From a virus, in the IMG/VR virus record IMGVR_UViG_3300027733_000033: 64,000 nt of DNA; one strand, 5' to 3'. The stretch's first letter is position 1. The number at the start of each line of letters is the position of its first letter. This document shows, piece after piece, positions 9,045-16,618 of this stretch. The notes under the pieces were generated by a model that was not told where the DNA came from, did not search any database, and worked only from the letters and a program-made list of their open reading frames with translations. Both the position numbers and the translations under genes were made by a program.

Positions 9045-9118
9045 CTCCAAATAATTTAAGGTTTAACTTCATTACGGTCTATTATACTATGTTTTATAAA
9101 AAAGTAAAGCTTTATTTT
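9045..9118 (-). repeat. Type-A early promoter/leader cassette (PeSL-like), representative copy
   Basis: Minus strand reads AAAATAAAGCTTTACTTTT..AGTATAATAGA..TAATGAAGTTAAACCTTAA..GGAG. Similar copies lie near 10090, 21992, 23877, 25240, 27698, 29448, 32295, 33003, 33422, 33797, 37189, 45702, 51322, 52093 and 53936. Confidence 0.9.
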
Positions 9119-9662
9119 AAATTATTTTAATAAAATTAGGAACAGGTCGTTGTTTCCAGCTGTGTAATTTAGTTTTACTGCCATTGTAATAGTTACGATA
9201 TGACTGAAGAGAGTCACCTTTGATGATATAGTCAACTGGCATAGCCGGCGTTGGCTCGGTAAACAATTTAGTCGAAATATTAAATGGAGCATACTGTAAT
9301 TTATCAACTAAGCCTGTACGCTCACATTTATGAGTTTTACCATATCGATAGGTATATTCTTTACACAACTCTACAAGTAAAGAATGCAACCACTGATAAT
9401 TTTCAAACCCATGACGAGCCCAAATAGCAGATGGGTGATTTATATGAGTCGCAGCATACAAAATATCTTCATATGAATTGTTAAGTTTCCAAACTTTTTT
9501 ATTACGACCTGAAGCTGAAACAGCCGCAGTTTCAACGCCGTCTAAAACACGATGCGCAGTTGATAATAACTGCGAATATTCAAGAATCATTTTGACGACA
9601 TGTTTGTCAACATGATATCTGGCACAAATAGATTGGTCGTAATCAAGATAAAATATGTTCAT
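9117..9662 (-). CDS. Pyrimidine-dimer DNA glycosylase (DenV-related family)
   Basis: MNIFYLD...DKHVVKMILEYSQLLSTAH...THINHPSAIW...EYTYRYGKTH. Confidence 0.8.
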   Translation of the reverse strand: MNIFYLDYDQSICARYHVDKHVVKMILEYSQLLSTAHRVLDGVETAAVSASGRNKKVWKLNNSYEDILYAATHINHPSAIWARHGFENYQWLHSLLVELCKEYTYRYGKTHKCERTGLVDKLQYAPFNISTKLFTEPTPAMPVDYIIKGDSLQSYRNYYNGSKTKLHSWKQRPVPNFIKII

Positions 9663-10063: not shown

Positions 10064-10155
10064 AATTTACACTCCAATTTAACTAAAGATAACTTCATTA
10101 CGATCTATTATACCTTAAATGACTCAAAAGTAAAGCTTTATTTTAAGGCTTAATG

Positions 10156-10236
10156 ATATTTTTAAGCGCTTAACCTCAATTCACGCCCGACTAGGCTATT
10201 ATACGTGTTTGGGTGTATAAAGTAAAGTTTTATTTT
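10156..10236 (-). repeat. Type-B promoter/leader repeat, copy 1
   Basis: atatttttaagcgcttaacctcaattcacgcccgactaggctattatacg; also at about 29053, 44708 and 54002. Confidence 0.9.
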
Positions 10237-10237
10237 T

Positions 10238-10346
10238 ACTAAATATTTTGTACAAAAAAAGCCACTCGCGGGATTGCAGTCCCCAGTGGCACTAATCATC
10301 CTAACATTAATTACGAGAACTAACATGACCAGCACAAGTATTTATA
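10238..10346 (+). promoter_or_regulatory. Endonuclease leader element: late promoter ACTAAATA, covarying stem-loop, antisense TATAAATA
   Basis: GCCACT-CGC-GGGA-TTGCAG-TCCC-C-AGTGGC; homologous elements at 15061, 22046 and 55311. Confidence 0.8.
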
Positions 10347-11022
10347 CTCCCATCACACCCACCTATCTGTACATCAAACAACACTCCATCACAAAAAAGA
10401 AATACTTCGGTAAGACCACTAGAGACCCATACACATACAACGGCTCAGGGGTTTATTGGACCAATCACATCAAGAAACACAGCAAAGAACACATCGTAAC
10501 TTTATGGGTTTCTGAGTTGTATTATGACACGTCAATTGTAGAAGTAGCCTTAAAGTTTTCTTCAGATAACGACATAGTCAAATCTAAAGAATGGGCAAAT
10601 ACGGAACCAGAAAACGGGTTAAATGGATGCCCTCCTGGCACAAAACGTTCAGAAGAAGCTAAGATTAATATGCGTAAGCCTAGATCAGAAGAAGCTAAGG
10701 TTAATATGCGTAAATCAGAAGAAACTAAAGCCAAAATGCGTAGACCTCGTTCAGAAAAAGCTAAGGCTAATATGAAAGGCAGAGCTCCAAATAAAGGTAA
10801 ATCCACATCACAAGAAACTAAAGACAAAATGTCTGCTAATATGACAGGCAAAAAACGTGGTCCATATAAAAAATCAAGTAAACCTAGAAACCCACGCTCA
10901 GATAAAGGTAAACCTAGAAAACAAGTCACATGTCCACATTGCGGTAAACTGGAGGTGAAAATGGAATGAAAAGATGGCATTTTGATAAATGTAAAGCAGA
11001 AACATCAGTCTCTTTATTTTAA
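10325..11022 (+). CDS. Seg-like GIY-YIG homing endonuclease with NUMOD3-like repeats (frameshift in the C-terminal Zn ribbon)
   Basis: YLYIKQH...YFGKT...YNGSG, (R/H)SEEAK.NMRKP repeats and CPHCGK. One A is missing near 10946 relative to paralog 55394; the restored tail reads TGGENGMKRWHFDKCK. Confidence 0.85.
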
Positions 11023-11061
11023 CATTAAATAATTTACAGTGAATAAAATACTGAGGATATA

Positions 11062-12648
11062 ATGGATTTAAATAATACTGGATACAACGGCAACCGAAAT
11101 TTAAAGCAGGTTGGGTTACCAATTGAGTTCACCGCAGAGCGACTCGAAGAATACATTAAATGTAAAAACGATCCTGTCTACTTCATAATAACATACTGTA
11201 AGGTTGTTTCGTTAGACAGAGGATTTGTTAATTTTGATTTGTATGAATACCAAGAAAGATTCATTAACGCTATTCATACAAATAGAAAGGTCGCTGGAAT
11301 GTTTAGTCGCCAGCAGGGTAAAACAACAACATCTGCTGCTTACATATTACATTACGTTACATTTAACGACCATAAAACGGTTGCGATTTTGGCTAATAAA
11401 AGCGCCGCCGCCCGTGAAGTTATGAGCAGAATACAGCTCATGTTTGAAGCCTTACCTATATGGCTTCAACAGGGAATTAAGACTTGGAATAAAGGTGACA
11501 TTGAATTAGAAAACGGATCTAAGATTTTCACATCTGCTACGACAGGATCTGGTATTCGTGGTAAATCTGTTAACATGTTATACATTGATGAGATTTCATC
11601 AATTGCTAATACGATTGCTGAAGAGTTTTTCACGTCAACTTACCCCGTTATTTCTTCTGGTAAAGATACTAAAATTTTGATGACGTCAACCCCAATTGGT
11701 TATAACTATTGGTGGAAAGTATGGAACGAAGCTGAAAATGGAATAAATGGCTTTTTACCCTTTAAGGCAGAATGGCACGAACATCCTGAACGTGATGAAA
11801 AGTGGGCAGCTGAACAAAAGGCGTTTCTTGGTGAAGTTAAATTTAATCAAGAAGTATTATGCCATTTCCTCGGTTCTGCGAACACATTAATTGATGCAAC
11901 GACACTAGGATCATTATCTCCTAAGCCGTTTGTGTACTCAACGCAAGACGGCTTAGACATCCTAGAAAAGCCTACACCAAACCATTTTTACGCTTTAGTC
12001 GCAGACACCTCTGAGGGAGTCGGTGGGGACTTCTCAGCGTTTGTTCTAATTGATATTACCGTTTATCCGTTTAAATTGGTAGCTAAGTATAAAAACAATA
12101 AGATTAGTCCTATGTTATATCCTAACGTAATACACAAAGTTGCTTTAGAATATAACAACGCCTATGTTTTGATTGAGATTAATAAATCTCAAGAAGTCGC
12201 TATGATATTGTATGATGAATACGAATACGAGAATATGATATCAGTTAAACGAGGAACAAAGGGACAAGTGCCAGTTGATGGTGGATACAGCAAAGGTTTA
12301 TTAGGCGTTACCACTGATAAAAAAGTTAAACGTCAGGGATGTCAAGCCTTAAAATCTTTGATGGAAGAAAAGAAACTACTGGTTTTTGATACAGACGTTA
12401 TCGGTGAATTCACTACCTTTATCGAGAAAAATGGCTCGTTTGCCGGCGATTCTGGTGCTCATGATGATTTGGTGATGTGTTTAGTATTATTTGGATGGTT
12501 AACATCAAGTGAATATTTTAAAGATATGACTAATATGGATACAAGAAAAGAATTATATTCTGCGCATATGGATATGATTGAATCATCTATGCTACCTGTT
12601 GGATGGTTAGTTGATGGCACAGAACAACCGCAATATGTAAATTTTTAG
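11062..12648 (+). CDS. gp17: Terminase large subunit
   Basis: GYNGNRNLK, SRQQGKTT (Walker A), YIDE (Walker B), TSTP, ADTSEGVGGDFS and HDDLVM. Confidence 0.96.
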   Translation: MDLNNTGYNGNRNLKQVGLPIEFTAERLEEYIKCKNDPVYFIITYCKVVSLDRGFVNFDLYEYQERFINAIHTNRKVAGMFSRQQGKTTTSAAYILHYVTFNDHKTVAILANKSAAAREVMSRIQLMFEALPIWLQQGIKTWNKGDIELENGSKIFTSATTGSGIRGKSVNMLYIDEISSIANTIAEEFFTSTYPVISSGKDTKILMTSTPIGYNYWWKVWNEAENGINGFLPFKAEWHEHPERDEKWAAEQKAFLGEVKFNQEVLCHFLGSANTLIDATTLGSLSPKPFVYSTQDGLDILEKPTPNHFYALVADTSEGVGGDFSAFVLIDITVYPFKLVAKYKNNKISPMLYPNVIHKVALEYNNAYVLIEINKSQEVAMILYDEYEYENMISVKRGTKGQVPVDGGYSKGLLGVTTDKKVKRQGCQALKSLMEEKKLLVFDTDVIGEFTTFIEKNGSFAGDSGAHDDLVMCLVLFGWLTSSEYFKDMTNMDTRKELYSAHMDMIESSMLPVGWLVDGTEQPQYVNF

Positions 12649-12694
12649 GAAAAATATGATTAACTTTAAACAGTTTAGAGAACAGCTCGACGAA
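12643..12694 (+). repeat. 52-bp RBS + capsid-targeting leader cassette, copy 1
   Basis: ttttaggaaaaatATGATTAACTTTAAACAGTTTAGAGAACAGCTCGACGAA, identical to 13502..13553. Confidence 0.95.
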
Positions 12695-13492
12695 ACAATG
12701 CTAGTTGAATCTTCACAAAAAGAACAATTTATCTATAACTCTCATGGTAGCCATGCCTTATTAAAAAGAAAATCTATAAATTTTTCATTAAAAGAAAATG
12801 TTGTTAATCCAAGTTTTGAAAAACATTTTCTAGGGCATAAAACTGATAAGTCATACAGTGAAAATCACAGAGATGAAATATCGAAAAGTAGGGAAATCGT
12901 AGGGAAATTAATAAAAAATAATCCTATATCAAAAGATGCTAGAGAATACATAAGCTCTTATATGCTGAATGATTCTTCAGGACTGACAAAAAGATTATTG
13001 GATACACATAAGCATGTTATGAAACATAATAATCTGGATAATTTTAGAAAAGATAAAAAGCCAGATAAAAAAGATAAAATTATCCAAGGATTGGATAATT
13101 ATGCATTCTCTCCAGCATCTGAAGATTTTGATTCTTATTCTGGCGTAAAATTTGATATTAGTAAAGTAAAGCCGGCTGGAAAAAGTAAAAATGGAAATCC
13201 TATTTATCATCAACCAACATTTATGTCTTCATCTACAAGTAAACATATAGCAAATGAATTTACTGATGATGAATCACCAATTAGACATATATTCCATTGG
13301 AAAAATAAAAAAGGCGATTCTATTTCAGCAGTAGCAGGCGTTCATCATGATGAGCACGAAATTTTATTAAATAGAGGAAATAAAAATACTTATATTGAAC
13401 ATTTAGGTCATAAGGATTATACTGATAAAAATGGAAAAATTGTTAGGGTTCATGAAGTAAGAAAAGTTTCAGATTTAGAAATTAACAACTAA
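12656..13492 (+). CDS. Virion-packaged ADP-ribosyltransferase-like protein (Alt/C2-C3 type)
   Basis: Leader MINFKQFREQLDE; SYSG (Ser at the usual Arg position), FMSSSTS and DEHEILLNRG (ExE) motifs. Confidence 0.75.
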   Translation: MINFKQFREQLDETMLVESSQKEQFIYNSHGSHALLKRKSINFSLKENVVNPSFEKHFLGHKTDKSYSENHRDEISKSREIVGKLIKNNPISKDAREYISSYMLNDSSGLTKRLLDTHKHVMKHNNLDNFRKDKKPDKKDKIIQGLDNYAFSPASEDFDSYSGVKFDISKVKPAGKSKNGNPIYHQPTFMSSSTSKHIANEFTDDESPIRHIFHWKNKKGDSISAVAGVHHDEHEILLNRGNKNTYIEHLGHKDYTDKNGKIVRVHEVRKVSDLEINN

Positions 13493-13501
13493 GAAACCGA
13501 A

Positions 13502-13553
13502 TTTTAGGAAAAATATGATTAACTTTAAACAGTTTAGAGAACAGCTCGACGAA
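13502..13553 (+). repeat. 52-bp RBS + capsid-targeting leader cassette, copy 2
   Basis: Identical to 12643..12694. Confidence 0.95.
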
Positions 13554-14975
13554 GCCAGAAAAAACCCTGAGATGAACCCTAGAATCTCAGCATACGAAGC
13601 ATTGTTACCGTATAAAGATGACGATAACGCATTTATACATTTTACCAATTTGAACAAACTTGGTATTAACCCTTTATCTGGATTTGAAACCCCAGTCGGT
13701 GTTTACGCTTACCCGCTAAAACAAGTTTGGAATCTTTATAAAGTAGATAAAGCAAAATCTTTATCTGTGTTACCATTTGGTTCTGATAGAGCCTATATTC
13801 AATTATTCAAATGGAACGGCAAAGGCAAATTAGTCAGCGATTTAAAAAAGGATTATACAAGCACAGATTATGATTCTGATATGCGTAAGTTGAGAACAAT
13901 CTATAAGGATATTCAGTCTAAAACTGATACATCAAAAGCATGGAATGCTTTAGTTAAAGGCATTTTTAAACACAAATTAGAAATTCCAGATGATTTTGAA
14001 GAAGGCAATGTCGTCAATATAACTCACCTTTTGGATACTGTGTTTGGTTCAGATAAAGTTCGTCGCGGCATAACAATCAAAGATAGTCCTAGAACAAAGC
14101 CTATTTTTGATGATATACTGAAAGCCGGTAAAGTGTATATGAAAGATAAAAAATCTGATTCAAATTGGGATAAGTTTAGTAAGAAATTTGAACTTTACCA
14201 TATTGAACCACCTCCCCGTATGGCAATTCTTTTTGTGAGTGCAGATGAACTTGAATATGAAATTGAAGATGCTATAAGAAACTCAGACAAATATCGTACA
14301 TGGGAAATTAACGTAAACAAGCCGGCTATTTATAGGGAACTAAAACCGCTTCAAGACGCATACAATAATTCTCTATTTAATGTTGATGATATAATTAATG
14401 CCGCTACAGAAAAAACTCGCAACCCATCACCAGCAACTTGTTTCTGGAATGTAACCCGTTGGTTGTCTAATTATGGGATAGATCCTAATGTCAGAAGATT
14501 TACCAGTGATGTTATGTTTGCTAAAGACGGGCATCATAGACAAATTCAAGCGCCTACGTTAGATACAGCAGAAATTAAAGCCGGCTCTAGACAATGGGGA
14601 AATCTGTTACGAAAACTAGGTTACGCGGGATTTGTTGATAGAAGAGCAGATGGCATTATACACCCTGCTGAACCTTGTCAGGCTGTATTTACCGGTATGG
14701 ATTACATTGAGTTGATTGACACTGTGCTTAATAAGGATTATGCCAAACTTAAACACGATGATGAAGTAACATTAGAAAATTTAAAAAATGCTTCTCATAA
14801 AGACTTGATGGATTATATTATGAATTGGAACGCTAATGCTATTGACAAAATTGATATGAAATATTTGAAATGGATAAATGATTCAACAGATTTAGCCAAA
14901 ATGGTTGTTGGTATGATGATTAAAGGTTCTACAACGACAAAAATAACCCAAGAAATTGATTATATCAAAAGCTGA
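13515..14975 (+). CDS. Virion-packaged protein with possible divergent ART-like domain
   Basis: Same leader; FIHFT..LGINP..TPVGVYAYPL and LRKLGYAGFVD..GIIHPAEPCQAVF motifs. Confidence 0.55.
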   Translation: MINFKQFREQLDEARKNPEMNPRISAYEALLPYKDDDNAFIHFTNLNKLGINPLSGFETPVGVYAYPLKQVWNLYKVDKAKSLSVLPFGSDRAYIQLFKWNGKGKLVSDLKKDYTSTDYDSDMRKLRTIYKDIQSKTDTSKAWNALVKGIFKHKLEIPDDFEEGNVVNITHLLDTVFGSDKVRRGITIKDSPRTKPIFDDILKAGKVYMKDKKSDSNWDKFSKKFELYHIEPPPRMAILFVSADELEYEIEDAIRNSDKYRTWEINVNKPAIYRELKPLQDAYNNSLFNVDDIINAATEKTRNPSPATCFWNVTRWLSNYGIDPNVRRFTSDVMFAKDGHHRQIQAPTLDTAEIKAGSRQWGNLLRKLGYAGFVDRRADGIIHPAEPCQAVFTGMDYIELIDTVLNKDYAKLKHDDEVTLENLKNASHKDLMDYIMNWNANAIDKIDMKYLKWINDSTDLAKMVVGMMIKGSTTTKITQEIDYIKS

Positions 14976-14980
14976 TAATA

Positions 14981-15013
14981 TGACGCCCAGTTCCTATTTG
15001 GTTCTGGGCGTCA
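14981..15013. terminator. 10-bp hairpin terminator
   Basis: TGACGCCCAG...CTGGGCGTCA after the stop codon. Confidence 0.75.
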
Positions 15014-15060
15014 AAATATTAATCGTTCAATATCAATACAACCGTCTAAAATTAAAATTT

Positions 15061-15158
15061 ACTAAATAATTATATAGTAAGATTCGCGATATTACCAGTA
15101 TCCAATCTTTCTAATACTTTGATTTTAATGGAGGAAGTACCAGCTATGAATATTTATA
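15061..15158 (+). promoter_or_regulatory. Endonuclease leader element (HNH copy)
   Basis: ACTAAATA; AAGATT-CGC-GATA-TTACCAG-TATC-C-AATCTT; CTAATACT...AGTACCAG; antisense TATAAATA at 15151-15158. Confidence 0.75.
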
Positions 15159-16618
15159 CGATTTTAAGTTCAATGAAACATAATAAACTTCAATTAAACA
15201 GATATTTAAAGTTTATTGATTGGTGTTCAAAAACAAATATTAACGGCGTTGAATTTGCACATTTGCACCATATATGTCCTAAATCTATGTTTCCTATGTA
15301 TTCAAATTTAACTACAAATAAATGGAATGGAATAAAGTTAACACATAGACAACATTACATTGCTCATTTAATGTTAACTAAAGTTTACCCAAAATCTATA
15401 AAAATGACAAGGGCATTTATATGTATGAACGCTAGTAGTCCACAATTCATAAAAATACATTCAAAATGTTATGCTAGTAATGTAGCAAAATTAAATGGGA
15501 AAGTTATAGCAAAAAATAAAATCACCGGAAAATATGAACACATCACATCTGAAGAATACGCTAAAGGTAATCATACGCATAATAGCGTAGGTATGGTAAC
15601 TGCAATTGATGCTGCTGGAAATATTATAAAGGTGACATCAGAAAAATTCAATTCTACAGAAAATTTAAAGGGTGTAAAAGCCAATACCGTTTCTGTTATA
15701 TTTAAAGATAACAGCACTGGGCATGTAACAAAAGAACAATTTGATTCTAATGATGAATTAGTTGGTGTGTTAAATGGAAAAGTATATGCAAAAAATAATG
15801 AATCAGGAAATTATGAATGGATAACTCCAGAAATATATTCTAAAGGCGATTATACACATTTTAATAAAGGTTTGATCACTGGTAAAAATAAAATCACCGG
15901 TGATGTCGAAAGAATAACTTCTGAAGAATACGCTAAAGGCAATCATACGCATAATAGCGTAGGTATGGTAGCTATATCATTAAATGATGGAACATACGCT
16001 AAAGTTACAAAGGAAGAATTTAATAAAGGCGGCTATAAAGGAGTAAATAGTGGTTATGTTATAGCAAAAAATAAAATCACCGGTGAATCTAAAAGGATAA
16101 CTTCTGAAGAATATTTTTTGAATTGTGACTATACCACACACCATTCAGGAACAGTTATAGCAAAAAATAAAATCACCGGTGATGTCGAAAGAATAACTTC
16201 TGAAGAATACGCTAAAGGCAATCATACACACAGCACAACAGGAACAGTTACAGCAAAAAATAAAATCACCGGTGATGTCGAAAGAATAACTTCTGAAGAA
16301 TACGCTAAAGGCAATCATACACATGATAATAAAAATATGGTCACTGTAGTATTAAATGATGGAACATACGCTAAAGTTACAAAGGAAGAATTTAATAAAG
16401 GCGGCTATAAAGGAGTAAATAGTGGAAAATGTTCTGTTCGTTCTATACACAAAATAGGCTCATATAGAATACCCTGTGGGACACTAAAAGATTACGAAGT
16501 GACCGTATATAAAAAAATTGTTTATGTTCATAATAGTTCAACTAATGAAGAAAAAATTTTATCTAAAAATGAATTCGTTGATGAAAAATGGAAACTGGGA
16601 AAACTAGAAAAAAATTAA
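15146..16618 (+). CDS. HNH endonuclease with about 10 tandem 30-32-aa repeats
   Basis: HLHHICPKS...LTHRQHYIAHLML nuclease, then G.V.AKNKITG..ERITSEEY.KGNHTH repeats. GGAGG RBS precedes the ATG at 15146. Confidence 0.85.
   Translation: MNIYTILSSMKHNKLQLNRYLKFIDWCSKTNINGVEFAHLHHICPKSMFPMYSNLTTNKWNGIKLTHRQHYIAHLMLTKVYPKSIKMTRAFICMNASSPQFIKIHSKCYASNVAKLNGKVIAKNKITGKYEHITSEEYAKGNHTHNSVGMVTAIDAAGNIIKVTSEKFNSTENLKGVKANTVSVIFKDNSTGHVTKEQFDSNDELVGVLNGKVYAKNNESGNYEWITPEIYSKGDYTHFNKGLITGKNKITGDVERITSEEYAKGNHTHNSVGMVAISLNDGTYAKVTKEEFNKGGYKGVNSGYVIAKNKITGESKRITSEEYFLNCDYTTHHSGTVIAKNKITGDVERITSEEYAKGNHTHSTTGTVTAKNKITGDVERITSEEYAKGNHTHDNKNMVTVVLNDGTYAKVTKEEFNKGGYKGVNSGKCSVRSIHKIGSYRIPCGTLKDYEVTVYKKIVYVHNSSTNEEKILSKNEFVDEKWKLGKLEKN

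Follow-up and report, generated by a model that had tools for sequence, protein, structure and literature searches.

A repeated leader module on two genes behind the terminase gene of a distant T4-like phage

For proteins injected along with phage DNA against host defences, the internal proteins of phage T4 are the textbook example. T4-type internal head proteins tagged with a capsid-targeting sequence (CTS) were reportedly the subject of work by Mullaney and Black in 1996. A locus of the same kind is analysed here in a 64-kb stretch of viral DNA (IMG/VR record IMGVR_UViG_3300027733_000033; 'the window' denotes all 64,000 nucleotides). The gene for the large terminase subunit is followed by two genes, cargo 1 and cargo 2, which start with one and the same 52-nt module: a ribosome-binding site (RBS) and a 13-residue leader. 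Given the repeat shared by T4 ipII and ipIII, the published polymorphic internal-protein loci and the head-packaged ADP-ribosyltransferases (ARTs), the window repeats phage T4's internal-protein arrangement and is not a new type of system. New here are the in-frame, promoterless module directly behind terminase, a near-isogenic genome pair that brackets the gain or loss of one cargo, an ART family with Ser in place of Arg, and a new, possibly split, ART-like family.

Targeting of the T4 internal proteins has been reviewed (PMC9026906, PMC3012670). The first ten residues of IPIII suffice for head targeting; residues 4 and 7 serve targeting, and residues 8 and 10 serve processing by the gp21 protease (PMC9026906). 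The internal proteins of T-even phages share the CTS only (PMC3012670, PMC12373910), and more than 30 variants are described (PMC2839356, PMC4122927). Shuffling of their genes among T-even phages was proposed in 1994; as the passages on that proposal in PMC2839356 and PMC4122927 describe it, no detailed mechanism was attached. Swapping of internal proteins has so far been argued only from comparisons among T-even coliphages. Other described systems come close to the present locus. T4 Alt is a head-packaged, injected ADP-ribosyltransferase, present at ~40 copies per head, whose propeptide is removed by gp21 (PMC9026906, PMC9503650). PeSL cassettes and mini-circles are described in the T4-type phages RB49 and phi1 (Arbiol et al. 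2010, PMC2839356; PMC4122927). Head-associated ARTs and polyvalent virion proteins are treated by Iyer et al. (2017, PMC5512222; 2022, PMC9503650).

The leader module and its T4 counterpart

The features at the centre of the locus are as follows.
11062-12648, + strand: large terminase subunit of T4 gp17 type, 528 aa (Pfam Terminase_6N 7e-17, Terminase_6C 4.8e-13)
12643-12694, + strand: repeat copy 1, comprising the terminase end, an AGGA ribosome site and leader codons 1-13 (MINFKQFREQLDE)
12656-13492, + strand: cargo 1, leader-tagged protein with a predicted ART fold, 278 aa, with Y-S-G / S-S-S-T-S / E-H-E
12695-13501, + strand: cassette-specific 807 nt, cargo 1 past the leader plus a 9-nt tail; absent from the related contigs L001, L002, L003 and L026
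13502-13553, + strand: repeat copy 2, the same letters as copy 1
13515-14975, + strand: cargo 2, leader-tagged protein of a new family, 486 aa, with a helical insert of ~240 aa

The terminase matches PHROG terminase families and is 47% identical to gp17 of cyanomyophages and of Caulobacter phage Cr30. Among 50,697 phage records no cultured phage matches positions 11000-15200 (megablast) or either cargo (tblastn), so the source appears to be an uncultured, distant T4-like myovirus.

The two repeat copies form a direct repeat with a spacing of 859 nt, and all 52 nt are identical, as an earlier reading of the sequence alone (the first-pass annotation) had reported. Each copy consists of TTTTAG, which is the last Phe codon and stop of terminase or the same letters, a 7-nt spacer (GAAAAAT), and ATG plus 12 codons; the AGGA ribosome site sits within the seven spacer bases. 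Both encode the same 13-residue peptide. Identity breaks right after GAA (Glu13), where copy 1 continues with ACAATG and copy 2 with GCCAGA. The proteins were held to be unrelated from this codon on, and profile-profile comparison of the two families (hhalign) agrees: only the first seven residues align. Descent of the two cargoes from a common ancestor, as diverged paralogues, was rejected because hhalign finds nothing in common beyond the leader. Even when up to three mismatches are tolerated, the window has just two occurrences of the 39-nt coding part, and 100 dinucleotide-preserving shuffles have none; an exact repeat of this kind is therefore not a chance match. The RNA of the repeat is predicted to be unstructured (z +1.4), and neither copy holds a sigma-70-type promoter-like site on the + strand. 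On these two grounds a PeSL or other promoter or terminator element was rejected as an identity for the repeat.

Phage T4 offers a direct parallel. Its ipII and ipIII genes share an exact 47-nt stretch of RBS and leader that ends 2 nt past the Glu codon. In T4 as in the window, neighbouring genes thus begin with identical RBS and leader DNA (47 nt versus 52 nt), and the match stops at the cleavage site. T4 and the window also have in common aromatic leader residues at positions 4 and 7, an (L/I)-x-E end and otherwise unrelated cargoes, and in each the genes vary in number and identity from one close relative to the next. The differences lie in length, position and cargo. The window leader has 13 residues rather than 10. 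Its genes stand directly behind terminase and lack separate promoters; the T4 genes lie elsewhere and have their own. Finally, the window cargoes are large and enzyme-like, in contrast to the T4 internal proteins, which are small basic restriction inhibitors.

At the protein level the resemblance is close. The leader reads M-I-N-F4-K-Q-F7 on both genes, with aromatics at positions 4 and 7, and ends L11-D12-E13; the next residue is T in cargo 1 and A in cargo 2. Cargo 1 has a further candidate cleavage motif, L-V-E, behind which S19 would be the first mature residue. Relative to the ten residues of T4 it has three extra residues ahead of L-x-E. The T4 leaders, read from NC_000866, are MKTYQEFIAE (ipII, ipIII) and MKTFKEF (ipI), with Y or F at position 4 and F at position 7. 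Among 24 homologues of cargo 1 (23-42% identity), 17 have aromatics at both positions, mostly in the form MK(T/S)FKQF. The same holds for 10 of 21 cargo-2 homologues, whose leaders vary (MKTFKQFRLELNE, MKLLEVLPLLE, MLGFRQFLE and others); here a hydrophobic-x-E motif stands directly before the conserved (A/S)RKNPExNPK core almost always. AlphaFold2 (AF2) models of both cargoes place the leader in a separate N-terminal helix of low confidence. Conservation across two unrelated families despite changed codons argues that the leader acts at the protein level. It fits a T4 capsid-targeting sequence, and the tagged proteins are accordingly predicted to be packaged and cleaved. The proposal of a T4-type CTS thus gains from the F4/F7 and L-x-E matches and from distant homologues of both cargoes that carry such leaders.

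A different function was considered, in which the shared leader is a translation-initiation or late-expression module, or some other tag, and the proteins act in the producing cell. An unstructured initiation region would indeed favour translation. This explanation is nevertheless very unlikely: the leader is kept at the protein level in homologues of 30-40% identity with changed codons, it matches the T4 residues for targeting and cleavage (PMC9026906), hydrophobic-x-E is nearly constant ahead of the conserved core, and both families adjoin terminase or portal genes.

An 859-nt difference between near-identical genomes

The closest relative of the window is contig L002. Its terminase DNA is 98-99% identical and its cargo 2 97.8% identical, and it has one 52-mer. 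Two high-scoring blastn segments between the window and L002 overlap on this single 52-mer; the two sequences therefore differ by one clean 859-nt indel whose borders are the repeat. In L001 and L003 (86-90% DNA identity) and in L026 (terminase 85% identical in amino acids), terminase is followed directly by cargo 2 and then by a convergent gene of 571 aa, which in L003 and L026 lies directly 3' of cargo 2. The locus is thus not invariant, since cargo 1 is missing from all four relatives. The first-pass annotation had cast the leader DNA as a recombination handle, and an indel placed at the repeat is what a crossover site would be expected to leave. Its further expectation, that variable cargo would be found behind the same 52 bp among relatives, is borne out in part. 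It is precisely at the repeat that the cargo-1 unit is either present or missing. No third cargo appears, since searches of viral contigs found the exact leader only in three known relatives, each time ahead of cargo 2. The terminase of L026 is 85% identical, yet the cargo-2 gene of that contig is a distant paralogue (~31% identity) with another leader, MITFTQFKEYLEE; the terminase-cargo site therefore seems to evolve fast. In 80 more distant T4-like contigs, the open reading frames (ORFs) past terminase fit tail sheath, tail tube and portal by size and order alone.

PeSL cassettes provide a precedent for such a difference. There too, two phages that are nearly identical differ by a gene with short direct repeats at its ends, the phage lacking the gene retains one repeat copy, and the proposed route is homologous recombination via excised circles. 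Excision between short repeats into circles, and the reverse reaction, have been shown for these cassettes (PMC2839356). PeSL is an intergenic early promoter with a stem-loop, and the window repeat has neither. Unlike PeSL, it consists of a translation start and a coding leader, so that exchange would take place in frame within a late unit. Two genomes, 98% identical and differing by one effector gene, offer a clean and testable example of the proposed shuffling in a distant, uncultured branch of T4-like phages.

The preferred reading, considered probable, is that both cargoes are leader-tagged and head-loaded and that the cargo-1 segment was gained by homologous recombination at the 52-nt module. 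Cargo 1 has the lowest GC content (28%) and the lowest GC at third codon positions (GC3, 16.5%) of the 68 ORFs in the window, where mean GC3 is 27.4% (sd 4.7). Together with the distribution among outgroups, this low GC3 favours a gain, which probably occurred in the lineage of the window. The opposite polarity would make the array ancestral, with cargo 1 lost from the relatives by deletion between the 52-nt repeats, that is, by the reverse recombination. Such a deletion would leave one copy, as in L002, and T4-type phages make deletions and circles of this kind at short repeats (PMC2839356). Since cargo 1 is missing both from the close L002 and from the less similar L001, L003 and L026, this polarity would require it to have been lost independently several times, and the compositional outlier status of cargo 1 points to recent arrival; an ancestral array is thus unlikely. 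A trivial explanation would be an assembly artefact that joined two population variants at the repeat. The repeat does exceed many assembly k-mers, and relatives with one copy exist. Even so, no assembler could produce the join between the cargo-1 end (GAAACCGAA) and the 52-mer unless real DNA contained it, no other continuation past cargo 1 is known, and an artefact is extremely improbable.

The two cargoes and their families

Cargo 1 has 29 relatives (best E 4.7e-39; nearest 43% identical) in a full HMMER search covering 1.84 billion representatives. Of 25 family members, 20 match PF03496 (ADPrib_exo_Tox) at E <= 0.1, the best at 1.3e-15; the window protein alone has no Pfam match at E <= 1. 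The family profile matches the solved ARTs Vis, C3, Vip2, BECa and HopU1. A structure prediction, which had been suggested as a check, supports this assignment: the AF2 model (predicted local distance difference test, pLDDT, 86; predicted template-modelling score, pTM, 0.83) finds 106 Protein Data Bank (PDB) chains at E <= 0.001 with Foldseek, led by Certhrax, VIP2, C2-I, CDTa and C3 (E ~3e-7, probability 1.00). It also matches predicted phage ARTs, including Alt of Aeromonas phages, at the level of fold only. Cargo 1 has no tblastn match at 1e-3 in the 50,697 phage records, Alt of cultured T4-like phages included; phmmer against PDB sequences gives a chance match only; and a word-indexed search found the protein itself only.

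S191-S192-S193 and E233-H-E235 align to S-T-S and E-A-E of Vis, and all 25 sequences compared keep S191, E233 and E235. Where Vis has Y-R-G the protein has Y161-S162-G163, and the Ser is nearly invariant across the family. An annotation of STS and ExE motifs with Ser at the usual Arg position is upheld by this alignment and by the invariance among 25 members. As the strand-1 Arg is replaced by Ser162, the protein is best classed as an ART-fold homologue of the Alt/C3/VIP2 clade and not as a canonical R-S-ExE enzyme. Just past the leader and before a helical domain, family members carry one or two copies of I-x-N-(S/T)-H-G-x-H-A (window 12716-12760; P0023-P0043), a region of low model confidence. 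The T4-type portal protein of contig L004 begins with a comparable G-H-G-S-H-S in its N-terminal region.

The relation to T4 Alt is one of kind. Both belong to T4-like phages and have an ART fold of the Alt/VIP2/C3 clade with an N-terminal propeptide ending in Glu, and delivery with the DNA is predicted for cargo 1. Orthology was rejected: there is no sequence match in the phage records searched, and the similarity is at fold level only. Cargo 1 has 278 aa compared with the 647-aa Alt of Aeromonas phage phiAS5, a leader of internal-protein type where Alt has a 7-residue propeptide, Ser where Alt-type R-S-ExE enzymes have the catalytic Arg, and the one or two histidine-containing motifs past the leader. 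An ART family that keeps STS and ExE and has Ser for the NAD-binding Arg deserves study.

Loci with ARTs of the cargo-1 family were collected using a nine-member sub-alignment, and several form arrays. In L006 two tandem ART paralogues (79-89% DNA identity) precede a third leader-tagged gene unrelated to them; L010 and L014 combine a single ART with the same third gene. In L010 the ART and its unrelated neighbour match at 23/24 positions over a 24-nt segment that spans the start codon and first leader codons. The idea of an expandable array is thereby strengthened, in that other phages carry arrays of leader-tagged genes with the same ART family.

Cargo 2 belongs to a family with 21 homologues, in which conserved N- and C-terminal blocks are separated by a variable helical insert; short members such as P0011, P0015 and P0018 have the two blocks joined. 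The core reads ARKNPExNPK..GIYxYP...LGYxGFxD..GIIHxxEPxQAVF, and T59, P60, P67, L368, G369, D375, I382, H383, E386, Q389 and N406 are invariant. The C-terminal domains vary and include LRV repeats (LRV/HEAT-like), Lcl_C and long Gly-Trp repeats (P0011, P0015, P0016, P0022); with leader and core kept and the ends swapped, the architecture looks like that of polymorphic effectors. The gene lies directly 3' of terminase in the window, L001, L002, L003 and L026, and two cargo-2 paralogues flank the T4-type portal gene in L004. Packaging in the head is predicted for ARTs encoded next to terminase or portal (PMC9503650). The position of the cargo-2 gene supports a role as head cargo. The L004 portal gene itself (L004:9231-12374) contains an intein and an HNH endonuclease (Portal_T4 1.2e-100, Intein_splicing 1.6e-10, HNH_3).

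The fold of cargo 2 is harder to assign. No Pfam, PHROG or PDB sequence match was found for it, and no ART Pfam family in 21 members. Even at E <= 10, PF18760 (ART-PolyVal) matches nothing in five contigs, among them two with cargo-2-family genes (L003, L004), and recognizable membership of ART-PolyVal at profile level was rejected for that reason. In the AF2 model (pLDDT 79.5) the conserved blocks meet in one beta core. Foldseek finds nothing at E <= 0.001; matches begin at E ~1-3, and many of these are catalytic domains of PARP or tankyrase. The best VIA-align match is a pre-ejectosome protein of cyanophage A4 (Z 5.7, 134 aligned residues, root-mean-square deviation 4.8), followed by RES toxin (Z 4.7), MbcT (4.5), PARP16 (4.5), ParT (4.4), and PARP1 and tankyrases (Z 3.8-4.1), all below the tool's reliable level. 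These matches cover 98-134 residues spanning 22-411, the core being residues ~22-110 plus 350-411. Language-model neighbours, taken as leads only, are ART-PolyVal (0.88-0.90) and clusters of ART-PolyVal, AcrIF11-like and Arr proteins (0.83-0.90). G-(I/V)-(Y/F) at 62-64 and the invariant E386 would fit the ART superfamily. Because three weak methods (Foldseek, VIA-align, language model) point the same way, an ART-superfamily core has a somewhat better than even chance, and the family is possibly a fast-evolving, split domain of that superfamily. A first-pass annotation of weaker ART-like motifs in cargo 2 can be kept in part: weak fold matches speak for it, and profiles give no match.

Comparison with head-associated and polyvalent ARTs bears on both cargoes. 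There, as predicted in the window, ART-superfamily domains lie beside terminase or portal and are predicted to be packaged and injected. The window cargoes differ in that they stand alone behind a predicted cleavable leader, with neither a fusion to MuF or portal nor a place inside a polyvalent protein; and while the nearest language-model neighbours of cargo 2 are ART-PolyVal clusters, the PF18760 profile does not match its homologues. This widespread, fast-evolving, leader-tagged family beside terminase and portal, with its variable C-terminal domains, also merits study.

A proposed route and the surroundings of the locus

Features around the three genes are listed first.
11024-11031, + strand: late-promoter-like ATTAAATA, from a motif scan, ~30 nt 5' of the terminase start
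14981-15013, + strand: strong GC-rich hairpin closing the terminase-cargo unit (-25.3 kcal/mol, z -7.5, 0/200 shuffles as stable)
15119-16618, + strand: HNH homing-endonuclease-like gene (phrog_655 1.1e-18, phrog_12434 4.1e-13)

ATTAAATA is a candidate promoter for a unit of terminase, cargo 1 and cargo 2. Sigma-70-type sites are not enriched in the region (20 found, 21 expected), and the terminator scan found none between terminase and the cargoes. The scan did not call the hairpin at 14981-15013 either, since it lacks a T run. The simplest reading is that the three genes share a single late transcript.

The following scheme builds on what the sequences show, namely the repeat, the indel at its borders, the fold and motifs of cargo 1 and a leader with T4-like traits that recurs in both families; late expression, packaging, cleavage, injection, enzyme activity and the direction and route of recombination are inferred. 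(i) Terminase and the next two genes would form one late unit with no internal promoter or terminator. (ii) Both downstream genes start with one module, a ribosome site plus a 13-residue putative capsid-targeting leader. (iii) The leader would dock each protein on the scaffolding core of the prohead. (iv) A gp21-type prohead protease would then remove it after L-D-E. (v) The processed proteins would remain in the head and pass with the DNA into the host, where cargo 1, being Alt/C3/VIP2-like, may modify a host target as soon as infection begins. (vi) The identical module on both genes would give the phage's own homologous recombination 52 nt to act on. Together with one module copy, the 807-nt cargo-1 segment may have been gained at a resident module by unequal crossover or by integration of a small circle, and could be lost by the same route, always in frame and with its signals for expression and packaging attached. 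Either process would give the observed order of module, cargo 1, 9 nt, module and cargo 2.

Several points weigh against this scheme. A tblastn search with a gp21 homologue found no gp21-type prohead protease in the 64-kb window, and the protease is presumed from the T4-like gene set. The Ser at the canonical NAD-binding Arg makes the activity of cargo 1 uncertain. The comparison rests on four related contigs (L001, L002, L003, L026), and no donor of cargo 1 was found, the nearest homologue being 43% identical. The repeat includes 13 nt 5' of the ATG, with the terminase stop, and gene conversion or a duplicated resident sequence would explain these no less well than crossover within the leader. 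Lastly, relatives of cargo 1 bear a different T4-type leader (MKxFKQFI.E), so cargo 1 must have acquired the local module, either in a closely related donor or by gene conversion after an unrelated insertion.

Elsewhere the protease and the ARTs do occur together: a Peptidase_S77 protease (gp21, PF03420) is encoded in G002 and G003, both of which carry cargo-1-family ARTs. The gp21-type protease of L021 (contig G003), at 1501-1932, itself starts with MKLLNEFTE, a leader-like sequence ending in hydrophobic-x-E.

The last two points raised against the scheme also suit a different origin, in which cargo 1 arrived by illegitimate recombination or homing-endonuclease repair, the leaders were equalized later by gene conversion or duplication, and the repeat is a scar. 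The leader of the cargo-1 homologues would make the local one secondary, the repeat does reach into non-coding and terminase sequence, and homing elements abound at the locus (the HNH gene, an intein-like insertion in L002, a NUMOD3-like gene upstream). Set against this are indel borders that coincide with the repeat to the base, the preservation of frame, RBS and cleavage site, and the recurrence of the leader-repeat architecture in T4 and in L010; a scar is unlikely.

Recombination at the module, as preferred here, can be extended in a speculative direction. The module might serve as an in-frame attachment site, so that circulating promoterless effectors integrate at any resident module, with the Ser-for-Arg ART active through non-canonical NAD binding; this is doubtful. 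Joined to it is the tentative suggestion that effectors move between co-infecting T4-like phages as small circles or fragments, each with one module copy. It is conceivable, and again no better than tentative, that they would thereby be expressed late, packaged and injected with no further adaptation. The conserved I-x-N-S-H-G-x-H-A motif possibly helps the non-canonical NAD binding.

The HNH-like gene at 15119-16618, with cargo 2 on one side and the convergent 571-aa gene on the other, is missing from L003 and L026; it is a second insertion at the terminase-cargo locus. Its GC3 (19%) is the third lowest of the 68 ORFs and resembles that of cargo 1. Internal 93-nt repeats (D1, D2) encode modules of the ITSEEYAKGNHTH type. 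In L002 the terminase gene is interrupted by ~1.18 kb (L002:895-2077; window junction 11862-11860), whereas the window terminase is intact. The upstream piece runs into C-V-G-K-D-T-L-I and the downstream piece resumes past V-S-H-N-C, boundaries that are intein-like; the interruption holds a free-standing endonuclease-like ORF of 274 aa. Just 5' of the window terminase, the ORF at 10274-10969 consists of tandem K-x-x-M-R-K-P-R-S-E-E-A-K units with a weak NUMOD3 match and is probably a further DNA-binding protein of homing-endonuclease type.

Three more ORFs of the window have N-termini like the T4 CTS, none with a Pfam family.
30467-29550, - strand: starts MKTFREFRAE; matches PHROGs without assigned function
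39611-38814, - strand: starts MLSYNEFKEAVLAE
54454-54113, - strand: starts MLSYNEFKNLNE

The leader can be used to read a phage's probably injected protein set straight from its sequence. A degenerate leader pattern gave 0 matches in metagenome contigs.

A 57-nt direct repeat of 82% identity occurs at 9064-9120 and 10090-10146 and contains AAAGTAAAGCTTTATTTT, with a third, partial copy at 10219-10236. All copies lie upstream of minus-strand genes, and the repeats at 9064-9120 and 10090-10146 look like a repeated regulatory box.

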